Shown here piece by piece: positions 872 to 33,437 of a DNA stretch of 64,000 bases. The translations under genes were made by a program, and so were the position numbers. Below the pieces are notes generated by a model. It did no database searches and was not told the DNA's origin. It saw only the letters and a program-made list of their open reading frames with translations. Every line of letters starts with the position of its first letter. Position 1 is the first letter of the stretch. Origin of the DNA: Escherichia phage vB_EcoM_G2540. The DNA is taken from sequence record MK327936.1; one strand, given 5' to 3'.

Positions 872-1063
872 TTAGTCATAATAATCAGTAACAGTCCAAG
901 CTTCATTTCTATTGGACATTATTTTTGTATATTCTGCTTTAAATGCATTCCTAAGCATAGATTCAGTAACTATATGCTCTTCATTAGAAAAATTATTTCT
1001 CAGAATATATCGTTTTATTTCAGGAATAGTTAATAGATGCTGTCCGGTTGAATATTCTGCCAC
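872..1063 (-). CDS. Hypothetical small protein (gene 45.2 position)
   Basis: 63-aa ORF, tightly packed after rpbA. Confidence 0.4.
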   Translation of the reverse strand: MAEYSTGQHLLTIPEIKRYILRNNFSNEEHIVTESMLRNAFKAEYTKIMSNRNEAWTVTDYYD

Positions 1064-1073
1064 AGTTCCTCCG

Positions 1074-1081
1074 TATAAATA
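1074..1081 (+). promoter_or_regulatory. T4-type late promoter (TATAAATA) upstream of HNH endonuclease gene
   Basis: Exact TATAAATA 34 nt before ATG 1115. Confidence 0.55.
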
Positions 1082-1114
1082 TGTTTATCACTCGCTGTAT
1101 CAAAAGGATATGTT

Positions 1115-1831
1115 ATGAATTATAAACTAATTTATGAAAAGTTAATCTCTAATGCTAAATCTCGAAAACTTGATTGTTATACTGAATCTCATCACATTAT
1201 ACCACGCTGTTTAAATGGCAGCGATGATGCTTCAAACTTAGTAGATTTAACACCAGAAGAGCACTATGTAGCTCATCAACTTTTAGTAAAAATTTATCCT
1301 TCTGAACCAAAATTAGTCTATGCTGCTAACATGATGACAGTTTCTACGAAATACGCTAAACGCAACAATAAAACTTTCGGTTGGATTCGTCGTAAACTCT
1401 GGGAAATAGAAAAGAATAAAGAATTCTCCCAGGAGACACGAAAGAAAATGTCTGATGCAGTAGCTAATAAAGCAAGACTAACTTGTCCTCATTGCGGTAA
1501 GTCTGGATTAAGCGGGAATATGAATCGTTGGCATTTTGATAACTGCCCAAATCACCCTAATCCTAAAGTTAGACCACCAATGTCTAAAGAACACAGAAAT
1601 AATATCTCAAACGGGCTTAAAGCAATCGTTCTTGAAGAAACATCCTGCGAATTCTGCGGAATGATAGGCAAGAAATGCGTTATCGCAGCGCATAGAAATT
1701 TCTGCAAGAAAAATCCAAATGGACGCAAGAAAACTGAAAAGACTGGTACTTGCGTCCATTGTGGTAAAGTTACCACTTTCGGAAATTTATCAAGATGGCA
1801 TAATGATAACTGTAAATATAAACTTAGCTAA
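1115..1831 (+). CDS. Free-standing HNH-family homing endonuclease with repeated Cys-rich zinc-finger motifs
   Basis: 238-aa ORF on strand opposite to neighbours; ESHHIIPR...EEHYVAH HNH-like core; three CxxCG...H..NC repeats; TATAAATA late promoter 34 nt upstream. Confidence 0.7.
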   Translation: MNYKLIYEKLISNAKSRKLDCYTESHHIIPRCLNGSDDASNLVDLTPEEHYVAHQLLVKIYPSEPKLVYAANMMTVSTKYAKRNNKTFGWIRRKLWEIEKNKEFSQETRKKMSDAVANKARLTCPHCGKSGLSGNMNRWHFDNCPNHPNPKVRPPMSKEHRNNISNGLKAIVLEETSCEFCGMIGKKCVIAAHRNFCKKNPNGRKKTEKTGTCVHCGKVTTFGNLSRWHNDNCKYKLS

Positions 1832-3512
1832 TCTTAGCTAAACTAAATCTACCAACTTTTTCCATCTGAATATGCTGACCATATTCTTGTGGGTCATGGT
1901 CTTTATGTGAAATTATGAAGAAGTTGGTATCCTTCAAACCATCTAAAATTTTAGCTACATTTTTAATACCTTCAGCATCAAATGCACCGTCATACACTTC
2001 ATCAAGAAATAAACAACTTATTTTAACACCTGAAACTTTTTCAGCAATATCACGCCAAGTAAATAAAAGAGCAATATCAATTCGTGCTTTTTCACCTTGA
2101 CTGAATGAAGCATAACTAAAATCTTCACGACCACGGGATTTAATTGTCTCATTAAATTCTTCATCTAATGTAAACACATAATCCGCTTCCATTATTTTAA
2201 GATAATGGTTAATCTGCTTATTAAATAATGGAATGTACTTTTTAATAATAGCACCTTTAATACCAGAATCTTTGAGCATATCAGTCAAAATTCCTCGGTG
2301 GTATTTTTCCATTACTAAATTAGTTTTTGTCTTAACAATTTTATCAAGTTCTTCTTGAAGCAGTGCTATTTCATCAGCATGGTCAATAAACTCAGAAGAT
2401 GCTTTTTCTATAGCCGCTTTAACTTTTTTAGCTTTATCTACCGTCGTGATTAGAGATTGCTTTTTATTGCGAATATCATTTGCCAGCGACTGCTGGGTTT
2501 TAATATTATCTCGGTATTCATCAACAAGAACTTTTAAATTATCACGATGTGTTGAAAGCTGTTCAAACGAATGCGTGCATTCAGAAACTTTATCTTTAAT
2601 TTTAGAAACAACTTTATCACCGGAACTTAATTGTGACAAACAGGTTGGACATAATCCACCTTCGTGATACATATTAATGACTTTATTATATGAGTCAATT
2701 TTTGATTTAATTAAAACTGCTTCTTGACCGATTTTATTAAATGCATCAGTCGGGTCTTCATCCAAAACAATATTAACTAATCTTTCATTAGCTTCTTCTA
2801 TTTCCGATTTTAGCGTTCTAGCTTCTTTTGCCAAATCATCGTACATATTTTGCAGACGAGTAAGGTTGTCACCCGTTAATTTTTTCTGGCGTTCAACGTT
2901 ATCATTATATATTTTAATTTGTTGGATAATACTATCTTTTTTAACATCAAGCACTTGGTTCTGCGAATTTAATTCACGTATTAGTGCTTTATTAAGCTTA
3001 TCCATTTCAGCTAATGTTCCTACCTCGAGCAGGTCTTCCACAAGCTTTCTTCGCGCAGGGGTCGACAAACCCATGAAAGGGGTATACCCTGCTGTACCAA
3101 GGACAACAATCTGCTTGAAACTGGCATATGACATTCCGATAAGCTGTTCAAATTCTGCTTGGAAATCTTTACTGCTGGCAGATTCATTAAGACGTGTACC
3201 GTTAACGGTGATTTCGAAAACGTTTGGTTTTTGTCCTCTTTTGATATAGTACTTTTTCTCATCATATTCCATCCACAGTTCAACTAAAAGTTCTTTCTTA
3301 TTTGTGCTGTTTATTAATTGACCTTTCTTTACATCACGGAATGGCTTGCCAAAAAGCCCAAATGTGATGGCTTCTAACATAGTAGACTTACCACCGCCAT
3401 TTCGTCCAGTAATAAGAGTTTTTTGAACCTTATCTAATTGAATGTCAATAGGATTTCCACCTACTGACATTATATTTTGATACCTAACTCGGTTTAGTTT
3501 AAAATTCTTCAC
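1824..3512 (-). CDS. 46: Recombination endonuclease subunit gp46 (Rad50/SbcC-like ATPase)
   Basis: 562 aa; Walker A GRNGGGKST near N-terminus; long coiled-coil middle; size and position match T4 gp46. Confidence 0.9.
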   Translation of the reverse strand: MKNFKLNRVRYQNIMSVGGNPIDIQLDKVQKTLITGRNGGGKSTMLEAITFGLFGKPFRDVKKGQLINSTNKKELLVELWMEYDEKKYYIKRGQKPNVFEITVNGTRLNESASSKDFQAEFEQLIGMSYASFKQIVVLGTAGYTPFMGLSTPARRKLVEDLLEVGTLAEMDKLNKALIRELNSQNQVLDVKKDSIIQQIKIYNDNVERQKKLTGDNLTRLQNMYDDLAKEARTLKSEIEEANERLVNIVLDEDPTDAFNKIGQEAVLIKSKIDSYNKVINMYHEGGLCPTCLSQLSSGDKVVSKIKDKVSECTHSFEQLSTHRDNLKVLVDEYRDNIKTQQSLANDIRNKKQSLITTVDKAKKVKAAIEKASSEFIDHADEIALLQEELDKIVKTKTNLVMEKYHRGILTDMLKDSGIKGAIIKKYIPLFNKQINHYLKIMEADYVFTLDEEFNETIKSRGREDFSYASFSQGEKARIDIALLFTWRDIAEKVSGVKISCLFLDEVYDGAFDAEGIKNVAKILDGLKDTNFFIISHKDHDPQEYGQHIQMEKVGRFSLAKIS

Positions 3513-3959: not shown

Positions 3960-4975
3960 TGTGTTGCCTCTACATATAACTGATTTGCATATTGAATAAG
4001 TGCTTCACGGTCAGAATCAGTGATGTCTGGAATTGCATTAATGTATTCTTCCATCAACGTCTGAAGAGATTGAACTTCAACTTCTTCACTTTCATCTGAC
4101 TCGACAGAGTTATCAATCTTTGACACAACTCGTAATGAATGCACAACTTTTTCTAGTTCAGATTCGAACTTCGTTAGATTTTTGTCTACTTCAGTTACTA
4201 TAACACGTACTGATAGATTTGTAAAATCTTTATAGTCAATTTTTCCTTTAAATGGATAATGAATTCTGCGATGCCAAGTAGTGTTGTTTGGAATAAATTC
4301 CATTCGTTCTGTTTCTGTATCAAACATCCAGAACCCGCGAGGGTCATTCTCGTCACCTGCAGTTAGTGTCCATGGTGTCCCAATATATCTGACATTTGCA
4401 GCCTCAGAGATAGTATGGAAGTGACCAGACCACACTTCTTTATAAGTCTTAAGGAAATCAGGTTCAAGACCGTGAGATTTCATTCCTTTATAAAAATAAA
4501 ATCCATTCAGTTCCCAGTGACCAACACAAAAAGAAGCAGATGAAGTTTTGATGTGTTCAAGAATTTCACCAGTATTTTCTTCGCACATCCAAGGAATCAA
4601 ATCAATCAAACATCCGTCAAAATCTACTGTAGTAGGCTTATCATATACTTTAACATTAGGATATTTAGCCAAAAGCTCAGTAGAGGCATTTGGATGCATT
4701 ACATTTTTGTAGTGGAGATCGTGATTTCCTACAATAGTATGTAATGTGATTCCAGCGTCATCAAGCATTTGAACTATTTCACGGGCAAACTCCATAGTTT
4801 TATGCGTGATTGCTTTTCGCACATCAAAAATATCACCATATTGAATCCATACAGTAATTCCATTTTTCTTAGAATATTCTATCGCTTGCTTAATTCCATC
4901 AATTTGAATACCGCGAATCCACTCATCATCAGCTTTAACGCCTAAATGCCAATCACCCAAGTTTAGTATTTTCAT
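3956..4975 (-). CDS. 47: Recombination nuclease subunit gp47 (Mre11/SbcD-like phosphoesterase)
   Basis: 339 aa; calcineurin-like motifs GDWHLG, GDIFD, GNHD; size matches T4 gp47. Confidence 0.9.
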   Translation of the reverse strand: MKILNLGDWHLGVKADDEWIRGIQIDGIKQAIEYSKKNGITVWIQYGDIFDVRKAITHKTMEFAREIVQMLDDAGITLHTIVGNHDLHYKNVMHPNASTELLAKYPNVKVYDKPTTVDFDGCLIDLIPWMCEENTGEILEHIKTSSASFCVGHWELNGFYFYKGMKSHGLEPDFLKTYKEVWSGHFHTISEAANVRYIGTPWTLTAGDENDPRGFWMFDTETERMEFIPNNTTWHRRIHYPFKGKIDYKDFTNLSVRVIVTEVDKNLTKFESELEKVVHSLRVVSKIDNSVESDESEEVEVQSLQTLMEEYINAIPDITDSDREALIQYANQLYVEATQ

Positions 4976-5576
4976 GGTGTCTTTTCCATCCTAATTTAGC
5001 TGCTTTTGAAACCAGTTCTTTAATTTTTCCTTTTGTCCATTCAGGACCAGGAGGTTCATGACATAACATTTGCTTAACTCCGTTATTATACCATTTTTTA
5101 CCTTTATTATGTGATGAAGCTTTAAATTTATTTGACCTTCCTTTTACATAACCTTCTGGAATATAAGGCAAAAAGGCAGATTTTCCTGTTAATGGATCAT
5201 GTGAATGTATATTTCCTTTACAATTATGAGAACCATATAATGGATGATTTTGTCCTTTATTATCTCTTCCAAATGAACCTTTTGGAGCAGCATATGACAT
5301 ATTAAAGAATAATGGATTTTTAACTGCATCATGCAATCGTTGATAATATAACTCGCATTTAATAGCTTCTTCACGCGTATCAAATTCAGCTAAAATGCAT
5401 GAATCAAATAAGTGAGGATTATCTGAAAGCTCTTTATTATAAATTTTCTTATACTTTTTAGATAAAACTGAACCATGATATCCAGCTAAATGCCTATCTA
5501 AAGACGTAGATCCAATATAAAAAGGAGGAAGTTTATCTCCACTATATATTGTTAAATAAGTTATATATTTTTTCAT
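4953..5576 (-). CDS. GIY-YIG (Seg-like) homing endonuclease candidate with NUMOD-like C-terminal motif
   Basis: N-terminal YITYLTIYSGDKLPPFYIGST resembles GIY-(10 aa)-YIG; C-terminal GPEWTKGKIKEL resembles NUMOD3; basic C-terminus. Confidence 0.5.
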   Translation of the reverse strand: MKKYITYLTIYSGDKLPPFYIGSTSLDRHLAGYHGSVLSKKYKKIYNKELSDNPHLFDSCILAEFDTREEAIKCELYYQRLHDAVKNPLFFNMSYAAPKGSFGRDNKGQNHPLYGSHNCKGNIHSHDPLTGKSAFLPYIPEGYVKGRSNKFKASSHNKGKKWYNNGVKQMLCHEPPGPEWTKGKIKELVSKAAKLGWKRHHENTKLG

Positions 5577-5737
5577 ATATCAAGAACCGTCATTGAAATG
5601 CAAAATAAAATTATTGAAATAAACCCATCTGGTGTGCTAAAGAACCCAATCCAACATGCTTTAGTGAATAGATAAAATGCAAGAAAAAGTATCACATATC
5701 CAAGAAATATCATTATATCAAACTCCGTATAAAGCTA

Positions 5738-5755
5738 AAGGGCCGAAGCCCTTTA
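5738..5755 (-). terminator. Hairpin at end of a-gt (AAAGGGC-CGAA-GCCCTTT)
   Basis: Perfect 7-bp stem with tetraloop overlapping the a-gt stop; T-rich on both sides. Confidence 0.4.
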
Positions 5756-6955
5756 TTTTGTAATAATGTCAAACTGTTCTTTAAAGCAGAAGCTTGAATC
5801 TTGATGCTGATACAAAAATTCATATGCTTTTTCACGCTCACGGTCATAAAGAGCTCGGTCAGATGACAGTTCTTTAATACGTTCAAATGTTGATTCCATA
5901 TCATTTTCATCAAACCAAATGATACCGCTATCATGCGAGGTCAAAGGAGTATTATCAACACGGAATTTTAAATTTTCGCCAGTAGATTTCCAAAATACCG
6001 GAATTGTTCCACATGCACCAAGCTCGAGATGAGTATATTCTAAAGAGCGCTGTAGATATTTTTTATCCAACTTACTCAACTGATAACCAAATCCGGATTT
6101 ACTCATACGTTCAAGCATTTCGCTATTTACATAACGATCGAGAATTTGCGTTGGTAAATTAGGAGCAATTTTAATTTGGTCTACTTGATGAAGACGATAA
6201 TACTCGTATGGAATTCCTTTTTCTTTAATAGGAATGAACGCTGGAGAACGTTCCAGACCTTCCATAATAGTACTTAGTCCTGCAGGTTTAAGATGTTTTT
6301 CGTGAAAATCAAACATCTGATAAAAACCTTTCCATGTAGTCGTACGACCAATCCAACGGTTGACATTCATGTTAATTTCAGAAACATCTTTCCAGTAGGT
6401 TGACCGAACCTTCGCAATATCCATAGGAGGCTGAAAGTTATATACGGTCGGCGCTTCTTCAATATCATCAAACAGAGAAACAGTTTCTGGATACCATTCT
6501 TTCATCAGAACTTTATTAAAATCACCATTATCAGAATGGCTAAAAATAACATCAGCTCGACGAACAGTTTCTTCTAATCCCAAATTTCGACGCAAAGAAA
6601 GAGAAGAATGGTCATGTTGATAAACTACAACACGAACCGAAGGTTTAATGTTATCAATAATTTTTTTATAGTTATTAATAGTGTCTTCTTCAACTGAAGT
6701 AGCAGGAACTGAATTGATAATTAGAATATCACAATCATTTACCAGCTTAAGTGTTTTATCGTATTCTTTTGCCAATAAAACCGGAATTGAAAATGATTTA
6801 TAATCATGCGCACAGTTACGAGTAAATGATTTATCTTTGGCATAAACCAAAGTTACTTCATGACCATTTTTAATAAACCAATCACGTTGCTCGAGTGAGA
6901 ATTTTGTTACACCACAACCTTCAAGACCTCGAGCCATAAAAATACATACTTTCAT
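5753..6955 (-). CDS. a-gt: DNA alpha-glucosyltransferase
   Basis: 400 aa; N-terminus KVCIFMARGLEGCGVTKFSLEQRDWFIKNGHEVTLVYAKDKSF matches recalled T4 a-gt. Confidence 0.85.
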   Translation of the reverse strand: MKVCIFMARGLEGCGVTKFSLEQRDWFIKNGHEVTLVYAKDKSFTRNCAHDYKSFSIPVLLAKEYDKTLKLVNDCDILIINSVPATSVEEDTINNYKKIIDNIKPSVRVVVYQHDHSSLSLRRNLGLEETVRRADVIFSHSDNGDFNKVLMKEWYPETVSLFDDIEEAPTVYNFQPPMDIAKVRSTYWKDVSEINMNVNRWIGRTTTWKGFYQMFDFHEKHLKPAGLSTIMEGLERSPAFIPIKEKGIPYEYYRLHQVDQIKIAPNLPTQILDRYVNSEMLERMSKSGFGYQLSKLDKKYLQRSLEYTHLELGACGTIPVFWKSTGENLKFRVDNTPLTSHDSGIIWFDENDMESTFERIKELSSDRALYDREREKAYEFLYQHQDSSFCFKEQFDIITK

Positions 6956-32967: not shown

Positions 32968-33437
32968 TCGGTGATAAAATTATTTAAATTTTGAGTATAT
33001 TTCTTTTCATCAAAAATCTTTTGCTGCCTACGTAAACGCCATGGCATTTCAATGAACGTGTACCATATCCCAGATAATATTGCTGCTGTAAAAATATTAA
33101 CAAGTATGGTTAAAATAATCCAATCTCCCGTTCTGTCTACTGGACTTTCTCCAAAGAAGCAAAATATAAATGATGTCACAGGAAAACTAATAATATACCA
33201 CAGAATCATAATCTTATCTGTGAACCAATCAGTGTTCGTTAATTTAGCGCGACCATTATGAATACACACGAATTTATCATCTGTTGCAGTAGATGGCTTA
33301 ACTGGTTGATATCCCATTCTAAACTCCCTAATCAGCAAATTTTTCATATCTTCGGAACAGCCATTCCAGTCAACTCTATCAACTGAAATGCCATCATCCC
33401 CATCATCTAAATCATACCAGCGAGTTTTTAAAATCAT
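32949..33437 (-). CDS. Two-TM membrane protein (tandem array member)
   Basis: 162 aa; two hydrophobic helices; C-terminal FITECRKLK. Confidence 0.45.
   Translation of the reverse strand: MILKTRWYDLDDGDDGISVDRVDWNGCSEDMKNLLIREFRMGYQPVKPSTATDDKFVCIHNGRAKLTNTDWFTDKIMILWYIISFPVTSFIFCFFGESPVDRTGDWIILTILVNIFTAAILSGIWYTFIEMPWRLRRQQKIFDEKKYTQNLNNFITECRKLK

Follow-up and report, generated by a model that had tools for sequence, protein, structure and literature searches.

In the genome of Escherichia phage vB_EcoM_G2540, a single reading frame of 238 amino acids runs on the plus strand between genes 45.2 and 46, amid genes that all lie on the minus strand. This raises the question of what kind of element it is and what defines its attachment to this junction. 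The stretch analyzed here, 64,000 nucleotides of sequence record MK327936.1 and referred to as the window, belongs to a T4-like coliphage of the genus Tequatrovirus. Over its first 5.6 kb it is 98-99% identical to teqhad, FL08 and REP2, and about 97.6% identical to RB32 and RB33. Read from right to left, the minus-strand gene order is 47, 46.2, 46.1, 46, 45.2, rpbA and 45. The reversed gene occupies positions 1115 to 1831 (plus strand), with its ATG at 1115 and a TAA stop codon at 1829-1831, and every neighbor was found on the minus strand, as a preliminary description of this DNA had held. That description read the frame as an inserted Mob-type mobile endonuclease gene, and both its homology to HNH and Mob proteins and its patchy distribution support this view. 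As the description also stated, T4 has no gene at the 45.2/46 junction; only a 55-bp spacer is present there.

As a predicted gene the element has been described before, and it is not a new insertion. In the RB32 record (DQ904452) the same ORF has been annotated since 2006 as RB32ORF054w, with the label 'similar to mobB', and two mob-like HNH genes were tallied for RB32 by Petrov et al. 2010 (PMC2993671, Table 5). Other GenBank records name the gene "homing endonuclease" or "HNH endonuclease", and dozens of identical or near-identical copies exist. The gene call thus adds nothing new, and the element is of an ordinary kind for T4-like phages. A literature search found no study of this particular gene. 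What is new is its fidelity to one junction across genera, and the sharply bounded tract of gene 46 that is linked to it.

On the far side of genes 46 and 47, the same phage has a second endonuclease gene, and the paired endonuclease genes around the 46/47 region can be likened to the 'HEG islands' described elsewhere (PMC10448857). No paralogues of the gene studied here, MobB-like ones included, were found within the 64-kb window.

Expression signals and insertion boundaries

The preliminary description had pointed to an exact late promoter upstream of the ORF, and a T4-type late promoter box, TATAAATA, is indeed present as an exact match at positions 1074-1081 (plus strand), with a gap of 33 nt to the ATG. 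We treat this box as a putative promoter. Note that the word itself is not enriched in the window, where 13 copies are found against 10.6 expected; its significance derives from where it lies and from its being conserved ahead of all the orthologues examined, not from word frequency. In the orthologues from Dhakavirus, Mosigvirus, Roth04 and COW86c, whose genes are only about 63-72% identical in nucleotides, TATAAATA is located 33-43 nt upstream of a start codon that opens an MNY or MDY sequence, with a conserved TATCAnTCGCnGTATCA block and then an AGGA site downstream of the box. In COW86c the annotated start lies 16 codons too far upstream, and the box falls within that extension. The corresponding 5' leader of the present gene (1082-1114, plus strand) contains the TATCAnTCGCnGTATCA block, which is kept in five lineages, and an AAGGA ribosome-binding site at 1104-1108. 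That an exact 8-mer should survive a divergence of about 30% in four other lineages seems unlikely to be due to chance without constraint; a rough estimate that assumes the lineages to be independent is 0.7^32, or about 1e-5. From this conservation we infer that the TATAAATA box functions as a late promoter. As the homing endonuclease genes of T4 are co-oriented with their neighbors except for segD, which itself is without a recognisable promoter (PMC2988022), the combination of reversed orientation and a separate late-promoter box is a less usual arrangement, although not a new principle.

Other regulatory signals were considered as well. Sequestration of the ribosome-binding site in an RNA hairpin, as known from mobE and I-TevI, was rejected: the leader folds like its shuffled versions, with a z-score of -0.54. 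A scan of positions 800-2100 for sigma-70 promoters and intrinsic terminators gave nothing above shuffle expectation, and no terminator between the convergent genes of this phage was found in the same region. In Bp7, FL31 and COW86c, a GCCTC...GAGGC hairpin is located between the convergent genes. We also do not claim that the cassette replaced a motif resembling a MotA-type middle promoter in the 46/45.2 spacer of T4, as the orthologues in other genera are without a match. A single MotA-type match lies inside the ORF, at 1599-1624 on the minus strand, with about 0.14 expected by chance.

In an alignment with T4, the sequences are identical up to window position 1056, just inside the first codons of gene 45.2, and the identity resumes at about 1842, within the last codons of gene 46. 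Adding the co-inherited, diverged 3' end of gene 46 to the insert that is absent from T4 (approximately 1057-1840), we place the whole mobile cassette, as a probable extent, at positions 1057-2017. On the left, the cassette supplies gene 45.2 with a new GTG start codon (1061-1063, minus strand) and a GGAGG ribosome-binding site (1068-1072, minus strand), and the ATG-GAA of T4 (MEYS) is replaced by GTG-GCA-GAA (MAEYS). In Dhakavirus, Mosigvirus and COW86c, too, the orthologous cassette alters the opening codons of 45.2, so that its product begins with M-A-. On the right, the C-terminus of gp46 reads ...GRFSLAKIS in place of ...GRFTVMV, and the two convergent genes end in overlapping stop codons that can be read directly within a duplicated palindrome, TTAGCTAA-tc-TTAGCTAA, at positions 1824-1841. 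The stop codon of gene 46 falls at 1824-1826 on the minus strand, next to that of the endonuclease gene on the plus strand, and in RB68 a variant of the palindrome, TTAATTAA, is found. In Dhakavirus, genes 46 and 45.2 overlap at the empty site (ATGGAATGA), and there the cassette re-creates the stop of gene 46 as well as a new M-A- start for 45.2. Both neighboring genes remain functional, by this reading, because the cassette carries a new stop region for the one and a ribosome-binding site with start codon for the other.

The protein: an HNH core followed by zinc modules

The HNH-like core ESHHIIPR...EEHYVAHQ that had been noticed in the translation is present at residues 24-55 and is predicted to form a catalytic core of the beta-beta-alpha-metal type (nt 1184-1279, plus strand). 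The profile search that had been suggested as a check gave a divided answer. With this single protein, the Pfam model HNH (PF01844) reaches only 16.9 bits and stays below its gathering cut-off of 21.4, while a profile of the family, as well as 29 of 50 relatives, did match HNH. The sub-threshold score is attributed to the sensitivity of the Pfam model, as the motif itself is complete; T4 MobB clears the same cut-off narrowly, with 22.5 bits. In addition to the 29 with matches to Pfam HNH (E<=0.01), the 50 relatives include 14 with HNH_5 and 34 with NUMOD3. In their alignment residues E24, H26, H27, P30, G35, N41, L45, H50 and H54 are invariant. A profile of these 50 relatives aligns residues 21-55 to the HNH motifs of McrA (E 5.6e-4), Cas8f-HNH, IscB, a group II intron maturase and pyocin AP41. 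Here H26 and H27 pair with the HH of 'EVHHVIP' in McrA and 'EVHHIVP' in Cas8-HNH, the first histidine being the general base at the end of strand 1, and N41 and H50, the central asparagine and the helix histidine, align with the matching residues of McrA. A single-sequence search of the PDB sequences yielded only E values of 0.17-0.29. In the structure model, a beta-beta-alpha fold surrounds the motif, with strands at 24-27 and 42-45 and a helix at 47-60.

The protein matches PHROG 655, 'homing endonuclease', with an E value of 7.5e-69, and 2300 homologues at E<=1e-5 were retrieved from a large protein database. Residues 1-110 are 44% identical to T4 MobB (E 6e-30), and residues 1-115 are 43% identical to T4 MobE over 120 residues (E 2e-29); past residue 115 or so, no similarity to MobB or MobE was found. 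The Mob group is defined by a common N-terminal HNH domain and an individual C-terminal half (PMC2790892). The present gene combines an N-terminal HNH domain of the MobA-E type with a C-terminal half of its own, and it stands alone between conserved genes, in place of the 55-bp spacer of T4. The assignment of its product as a Mob-type HNH endonuclease with predicted nuclease activity is supported by these features.

In the C-terminal half, a single, weak NUMOD3-like helix is encoded at 1421-1459 (plus strand; Pfam NUMOD3 E 0.13, below cut-off), at the position where the 34 relatives mentioned above have their NUMOD3 repeats. The three cysteine-rich repeats of the preliminary description were located at residues 124-144, 178-197 and 213-233, with matching peptide strings, and they form CCHC zinc modules. 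In the model, module 1 (nt 1484-1546, plus strand; C-x2-C-x12-H-x3-C) consists of strands 121-123 and 130-132 and helix 133-143, module 2 (nt 1646-1705, plus strand; C-x2-C-x11-H-x3-C) of strands 175-177 and 184-186 and helix 187-196, and module 3 (nt 1751-1813, plus strand) of strands 210-212 and 219-221 and helix 222-232. Only module 3 is invariant throughout the family, with C213, C216, H229 and C233 retained in the 50 relatives. Where most family members have NUMOD3 repeats, the lineage at the 45.2|46 junction has two extra CCHC modules.

The AlphaFold2 model is confident, with a mean pLDDT of 93.3, and shows a helix, the beta-beta-alpha HNH core, several further helices and three beta-beta-alpha modules, one at each of the three C-x2-C-x11/12-H-x3-C motifs. 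A Foldseek comparison with predicted viral structures returned 89 hits at E<=0.001, among them T4 MobB (9e-11) and T4 MobC (2e-9), and many of these matches are entries named 'Mob-like homing endonuclease'. A comparison of the whole-chain model with solved structures gave no significant match.

Distribution and the linked tract of gene 46

At a nucleotide identity of at least 95%, the gene was found in 58 phage records, as opposed to about 500 records in which the flanking genes reach a comparable identity. When the flank-ranked records were sampled at even spacing, those of Tequatrovirus comprised 43 empty and 6 filled sites, and by either count carriage among close relatives is about 12%. 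The synteny comparison proposed in the preliminary description thus shows that the gene is not conserved at the 45.2-46 junction in all close relatives. The site is empty in T4, T6, RB14, phiD1 and others, and within a single species, Tequatrovirus gee4498, it is filled in G4498 and empty in UTI-E2. Diverged orthologues with an amino-acid identity of about 60-65%, again reversed relative to their neighbors, were located at the 45.2|46 junction of Dhakavirus Bp7 and IME281, Mosigvirus FL31, Klebsiella phage Roth04 and Erwinia phage COW86c, and in most relatives of these carriers the site is empty. In IMG/VR, 31 loci spread over several genera comprised one filled site (L017, the IME281 locus), 29 empty ones and one that was truncated before the junction. 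Presence and absence are therefore polymorphic at one homologous site in five lineages, as is characteristic of a homing gene. Within Tequatrovirus, all copies are at least 97.7% identical and always occupy the one site; this near-identity makes a single recent acquisition conceivable, and the copies may have been spread from it by ordinary recombination.

The gene does not travel alone. The 3' end of gene 46, from the Walker B codons to the stop (1824-2017, minus strand), accompanies it, as evidenced by the divergence between carriers and non-carriers, and is our candidate for the target region. The comparison comprised 6 carriers versus 12 non-carriers in Tequatrovirus, 2 versus 4 in Dhakavirus and 1 versus 1 in Mosigvirus, small samples owing to the few close relatives among the 31 IMG/VR loci. 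In Tequatrovirus, approximately 190 bp of gene 46 are 16-32% diverged between carriers and non-carriers, with 21 fixed differences, and divergence then drops to 0-2%. The tract is nearly invariant among the carriers, and the fixed differences associated with the endonuclease gene extend to about 2015-2017, beyond which the background level is reached. In the phage studied here the body of gene 46 differs from that of RB14 by 1.0%, and the tract differs from that of every non-carrier by 20-25%. On the 45.2/rpbA side, no position separates the 6 carriers from the 12 non-carriers of Tequatrovirus up to the boundary of the insert.

The same pattern is repeated in the other genera. In Dhakavirus the tract is diverged by 26-33%, followed by 3-6%, and a comparison of Mosigvirus FL31 with a non-carrier locus (L008) gave 25.6% for the tract and 1.9% for the body of gene 46. 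Across the three genera the linked block measures about 190-225 bp, and its inner end falls within some 25 nt of one alignment position (here about 2017-2042). This position directly precedes the Walker B codons (C-L-F-L-D-E) in gene 46, which encodes a Rad50/SbcC-like ATPase. Carrier tracts of different genera are as diverged from each other as are their endonuclease genes, and gene and tract therefore behave as one unit. Among the sampled genera no donor of the tract closer than 19-29% was found, and the carrier tracts of different genera do not cluster.

A one-sided tract of this kind is the footprint, at the level of populations, that would be expected of homing with co-conversion if everything from the cut to the endonuclease gene is copied each time a break is repaired, as has been reported for MobE and SegG. 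The last 90 nt of gene 46 are highly conserved across 23 non-carrier alleles from several genera, and carrier alleles deviate there at otherwise invariant sites, with an arginine codon changed from CGA to AGA or AGG in three of the five lineages. At the other end of the tract, just past Walker B, a phenylalanine is replaced by tyrosine, again in three of five carrier lineages. A single protective change common to all carriers was not evident in this comparison, in which differences at invariant positions are common to only two or three of the five lineages. As the carriers have changes near both ends of the tract, both ends are candidates for the cut, and the tract does not fix its position. 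Note also that the inner boundary could merely represent the first block that is conserved enough for recombination to resolve, and not the cut site.

The coding sequence itself has been maintained. None of the 11 copies examined has a disrupted reading frame, and among the near-identical copies of Tequatrovirus the synonymous codon differences outnumber the non-synonymous ones (for example 9:2 and 12:5). The dN/dS ratio is 0.04 between Bp7 and IME281 and 0.12-0.23 in cross-genus comparisons, where it is approximate because dS is saturated. The protein is under purifying selection.

Proposed mechanism, rival readings and known systems

The anatomy of the locus, the homology of the protein, its sporadic distribution, the junction specificity across genera, the linked tract and the purifying selection together lead us to assign a probability of roughly 80% to the reading of the ORF as a Mob-type HNH homing endonuclease gene that is free-standing and specific to the 46/45.2 junction. 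The mechanism that we propose for it is modelled on this anatomy, on the homology to MobE and MobB and on the population patterns; its conditional steps are the late timing of transcription, the cleavage of DNA, where that cut falls, and self-protection. Late in infection, RNA polymerase directed by gp55 would start at TATAAATA and transcribe the gene against its early-gene neighbors. The product would combine an N-terminal HNH nuclease of the MobB/MobE type with a NUMOD3-like helix and three CCHC fingers, presumably for recognition of the DNA target, and in a co-infecting relative without the gene it would nick or cut the DNA in or beside the conserved 3' end of gene 46. Recombinational repair from the carrier genome would then copy the gene together with the last 190 bp or so of gene 46, as the population pattern suggests, and the carrier would be spared by virtue of its own diverged copy of that stretch. 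As the cassette legibly contains a stop region for gene 46, together with a start codon and ribosome-binding site for 45.2, the neighbors of a newly inserted copy would stay functional.

A more far-reaching version of this reading can be formulated, and we advance it tentatively, considering it possible rather than probable. Here the cassette would belong to an old, junction-specific lineage that has co-diverged with a fixed piece of gene 46 of about 190-225 bp, from Walker B through the H-loop to the stop, in at least five T4-like groups. Its enzyme would cut near the conserved signature-motif/Walker B block some 200 bp away and would repeatedly replace the C-terminus of the gp46 ATPase in its recipients, the three alleles of this segment in Tequatrovirus, that of T4 included, would be relics of such events, and the tandem CCHC fingers would constitute a modular array that reads the conserved sequence.

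Several rival explanations have to be weighed against homing. The gene might once have been mobile and now be fixed, retained since its deletion would remove the stop region of gene 46 along with the ribosome-binding site and start of 45.2. In favor of this view, gene 45.2 receives its start codon and Shine-Dalgarno sequence from the cassette, as gene 46 does its final codons, and the Tequatrovirus copies, all at one site, are almost the same in sequence; in T4, mobA and I-TevIII exemplify endonuclease genes that have persisted although defunct. A decaying gene, however, would not be expected to retain its promoter box in five lineages, nor does decay agree with 11 of 11 intact frames, the excess of synonymous changes and dN/dS ratios of 0.04-0.23 across genera. 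Catalytic and zinc-binding residues are invariant among the 50 relatives, and presence of the gene varies within a single species, so that we regard fixation as unlikely. The three zinc modules could also point to a DNA-binding regulator that has lost its nuclease activity and, for example, represses or times the expression of 45.2 and 46 through the leader, where a conserved TATCA...GTATCA block lies between promoter box and start codon; I-TevI, for one, doubles as an autorepressor (PMC2988022). Every catalytic position of the HNH motif is nevertheless invariant in the 50 relatives, and neither the sporadic distribution nor the linked tract of gene 46 is expected of a regulator, which makes this by far the least probable of the explanations.

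It is also conceivable that the nuclease is active but mainly serves the phage, with homing as a side effect, be it as a weapon against co-infecting relatives (marker exclusion) or as an aid to recombination or amplification near genes 46 and 47. T4 endonucleases contribute to the partial exclusion of T2 (PMC2993671), and SegB is reported to aid immune evasion via the amplification of nearby loci (PMC13096335). The gene furthermore adjoins the essential recombination nuclease genes 46 and 47, on whose other side the second endonuclease gene is found, in an arrangement like that of the 'HEG islands' (PMC10448857). No feature of the sequence separates such a role from plain homing, with which it is compatible, but carriage of about 12% is more in keeping with a selfish element than with a function of general use, and we consider a primary benefit to the phage improbable, more so than fixation.

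The comparison shows a single endonuclease lineage that adheres to one junction across genera, always in reversed orientation, with its own putative late-promoter box and always with the same short piece of gene 46. That this piece is dragged along also accounts for the hot spot of mosaicism at the 3' end of gene 46 among T-even genomes, and the linked tract offers a concrete place to seek the cleavage site of a Mob-type enzyme. The comparative picture may be useful to researchers on phage mobile elements.

Among the systems known from T4, MobB, at the a-gt/a-gt.2 junction, is the best T4 match for the N-terminal domain, but its C-terminal half consists of two NUMOD1 domains and an I-HmuI NUMOD-like domain instead of zinc fingers, and its insertion site and orientation are different. 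The NUMOD3-containing HNH endonucleases of phages and metagenomes, which make up the bulk of the 2300 homologues, have the N-terminal domain and the invariant C-terminal CCHC finger in common with the present protein, but they mostly contain NUMOD3 repeats mid-protein, in the place of the two extra modules of the junction lineage. The GIY-YIG gene segD, between genes 23 and 24, is the sole homing endonuclease gene of T4 that is likewise oriented against its neighbors (PMC2988022). It belongs to a different nuclease family, and no segD-specific promoter was found, in contrast to the conserved late-promoter box observed here. For SegG, a GIY-YIG enzyme encoded beside gene 32, co-conversion from a cleavage site distant from the gene has been reported (Liu et al. 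2003, cited in PMC2993671), and the tract of about 190 bp suggests the same for the present gene; nuclease family and locus are different, and cleavage by SegG was demonstrated, whereas that by the present enzyme is predicted.

The closest parallel in mechanism is MobE, encoded between nrdA and nrdB, the only Mob protein of T4 with experimental data (PMC2790892). Its nick falls in the adjacent nrdB gene of T2, and flanking sequence is co-converted as mobE is inherited (PMC2790892). Both genes are free-standing between conserved genes, and their products are related in the N-terminal HNH domain (43% identity). The target of MobE lies in a neighboring conserved gene and not at the point of insertion, and the gene 46 tract suggests that the same holds here. 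MobE, however, has only 141 residues, and its gene lacks a dedicated promoter, points in the direction of its neighbors and is limited by an internal terminator, whereas the gene in the window encodes 238 residues including three CCHC zinc modules, is reversed and is preceded by its own late-promoter box.

The gene 46/45.2 spacer and the 3' end of gene 46

We compared the spacer between genes 46 and 45.2 of T4 (nt 748-802 of the T4 locus L003, T4 33247-33301) with the insert of the window phage (window 1057-1840). Directly upstream of 45.2, the T4 spacer holds a good match to a middle promoter-like motif of the MotA type (TATGCTTTAA, 11 nt, TATAAT). This T4-type spacer is missing in its entirety from the carriers of the endonuclease gene, and the sole similar MotA-type motif of the insert is found on the minus strand at window 1599-1624 and is not retained in other genera.

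Even among the non-carriers, the 3'-terminal ~200 bp of gene 46 occur as two alleles, a T4-type and an RB14-type (window 1842-2042 compared with the loci L003 and L039), that diverge by 10-21% while the remainder of the gene is almost identical. At the protein level, it is the T4 allele that more closely resembles the carrier allele, the diverged gene 46 end linked to the endonuclease gene (DG.FDAEGIK, ISHKDHDPQEYGQH). The allele found in T4 could be the remnant of an earlier invasion after which the endonuclease gene was lost.

Relatives and their database records

The stretch comprising genes 44, 45 and rpbA is another hot spot for insertions in the relatives. In the Mosigvirus FL31, a minus-strand gene for a protein of 296 aa (L036 907-1797), matching PHROG 7504 'homing endonuclease' at 2.6e-16, is located between 45 and rpbA, the IMG/VR locus L014 contains an extra ~850 bp between rpbA and 45 (about 5300-6200), and an unnamed minus-strand gene of 579 bp lies between 44 and 45 in the Dhakavirus Bp7 (L038 421-999).

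Several records show anomalies. The annotation of Bp7 (HQ829472) splits gene 46 into two CDS of 183 bp and 1239 bp (L038 3337-4837), which points to a frameshift or a mistake in the sequencing; in the almost identical locus of the Dhakavirus carrier IME281 the gene is single and intact, with 1683 bp. In the orthologue from Erwinia phage COW86c, the conserved MNYKLIY start is found 16 codons downstream of the annotated one (L037 2453-2500), the annotated N-terminal extension includes a TATAAATA box, and the annotation is probably overlong. Note that PV654520.1, 'Pseudomonas phage vB_PSGBLB0006' with P. aeruginosa as its listed host, is 98.4% identical to the Tequatrovirus region of the window over 5.6 kb, so that mislabelling or contamination of this record seems likely.

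Other endonuclease genes in the window

A tblastn search of the 64-kb window revealed no paralogue of the HNH protein, and the phage is therefore without MobB-, MobC- and MobD-like genes where T4 has them. The a-gt/a-gt.2 junction, occupied by mobB in T4, seems to be empty in this phage.

A second endonuclease gene, also free-standing and encoding 207 aa, is located on the minus strand between gene 47 and a-gt (window 4953-5576), at the position taken in T4 by the small gene 47.1, and is common to only about ten records. Pfam indicated a GIY-YIG domain at 21.4 bits, slightly below the cut-off of 22.6 bits, and the protein matched PHROG 10820, labelled 'HNH endonuclease', at 1e-94 and PHROG 314 'homing endonuclease' at 5e-18. 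In the close relative teqhad, the RefSeq name of this gene is likewise 'HNH endonuclease', a name that may be wrong. The gene at the 45.2/46 junction and the 207-aa endonuclease gene flank the 46-47 recombination nuclease operon on either side, an arrangement resembling the 'HEG islands' described in PMC10448857.
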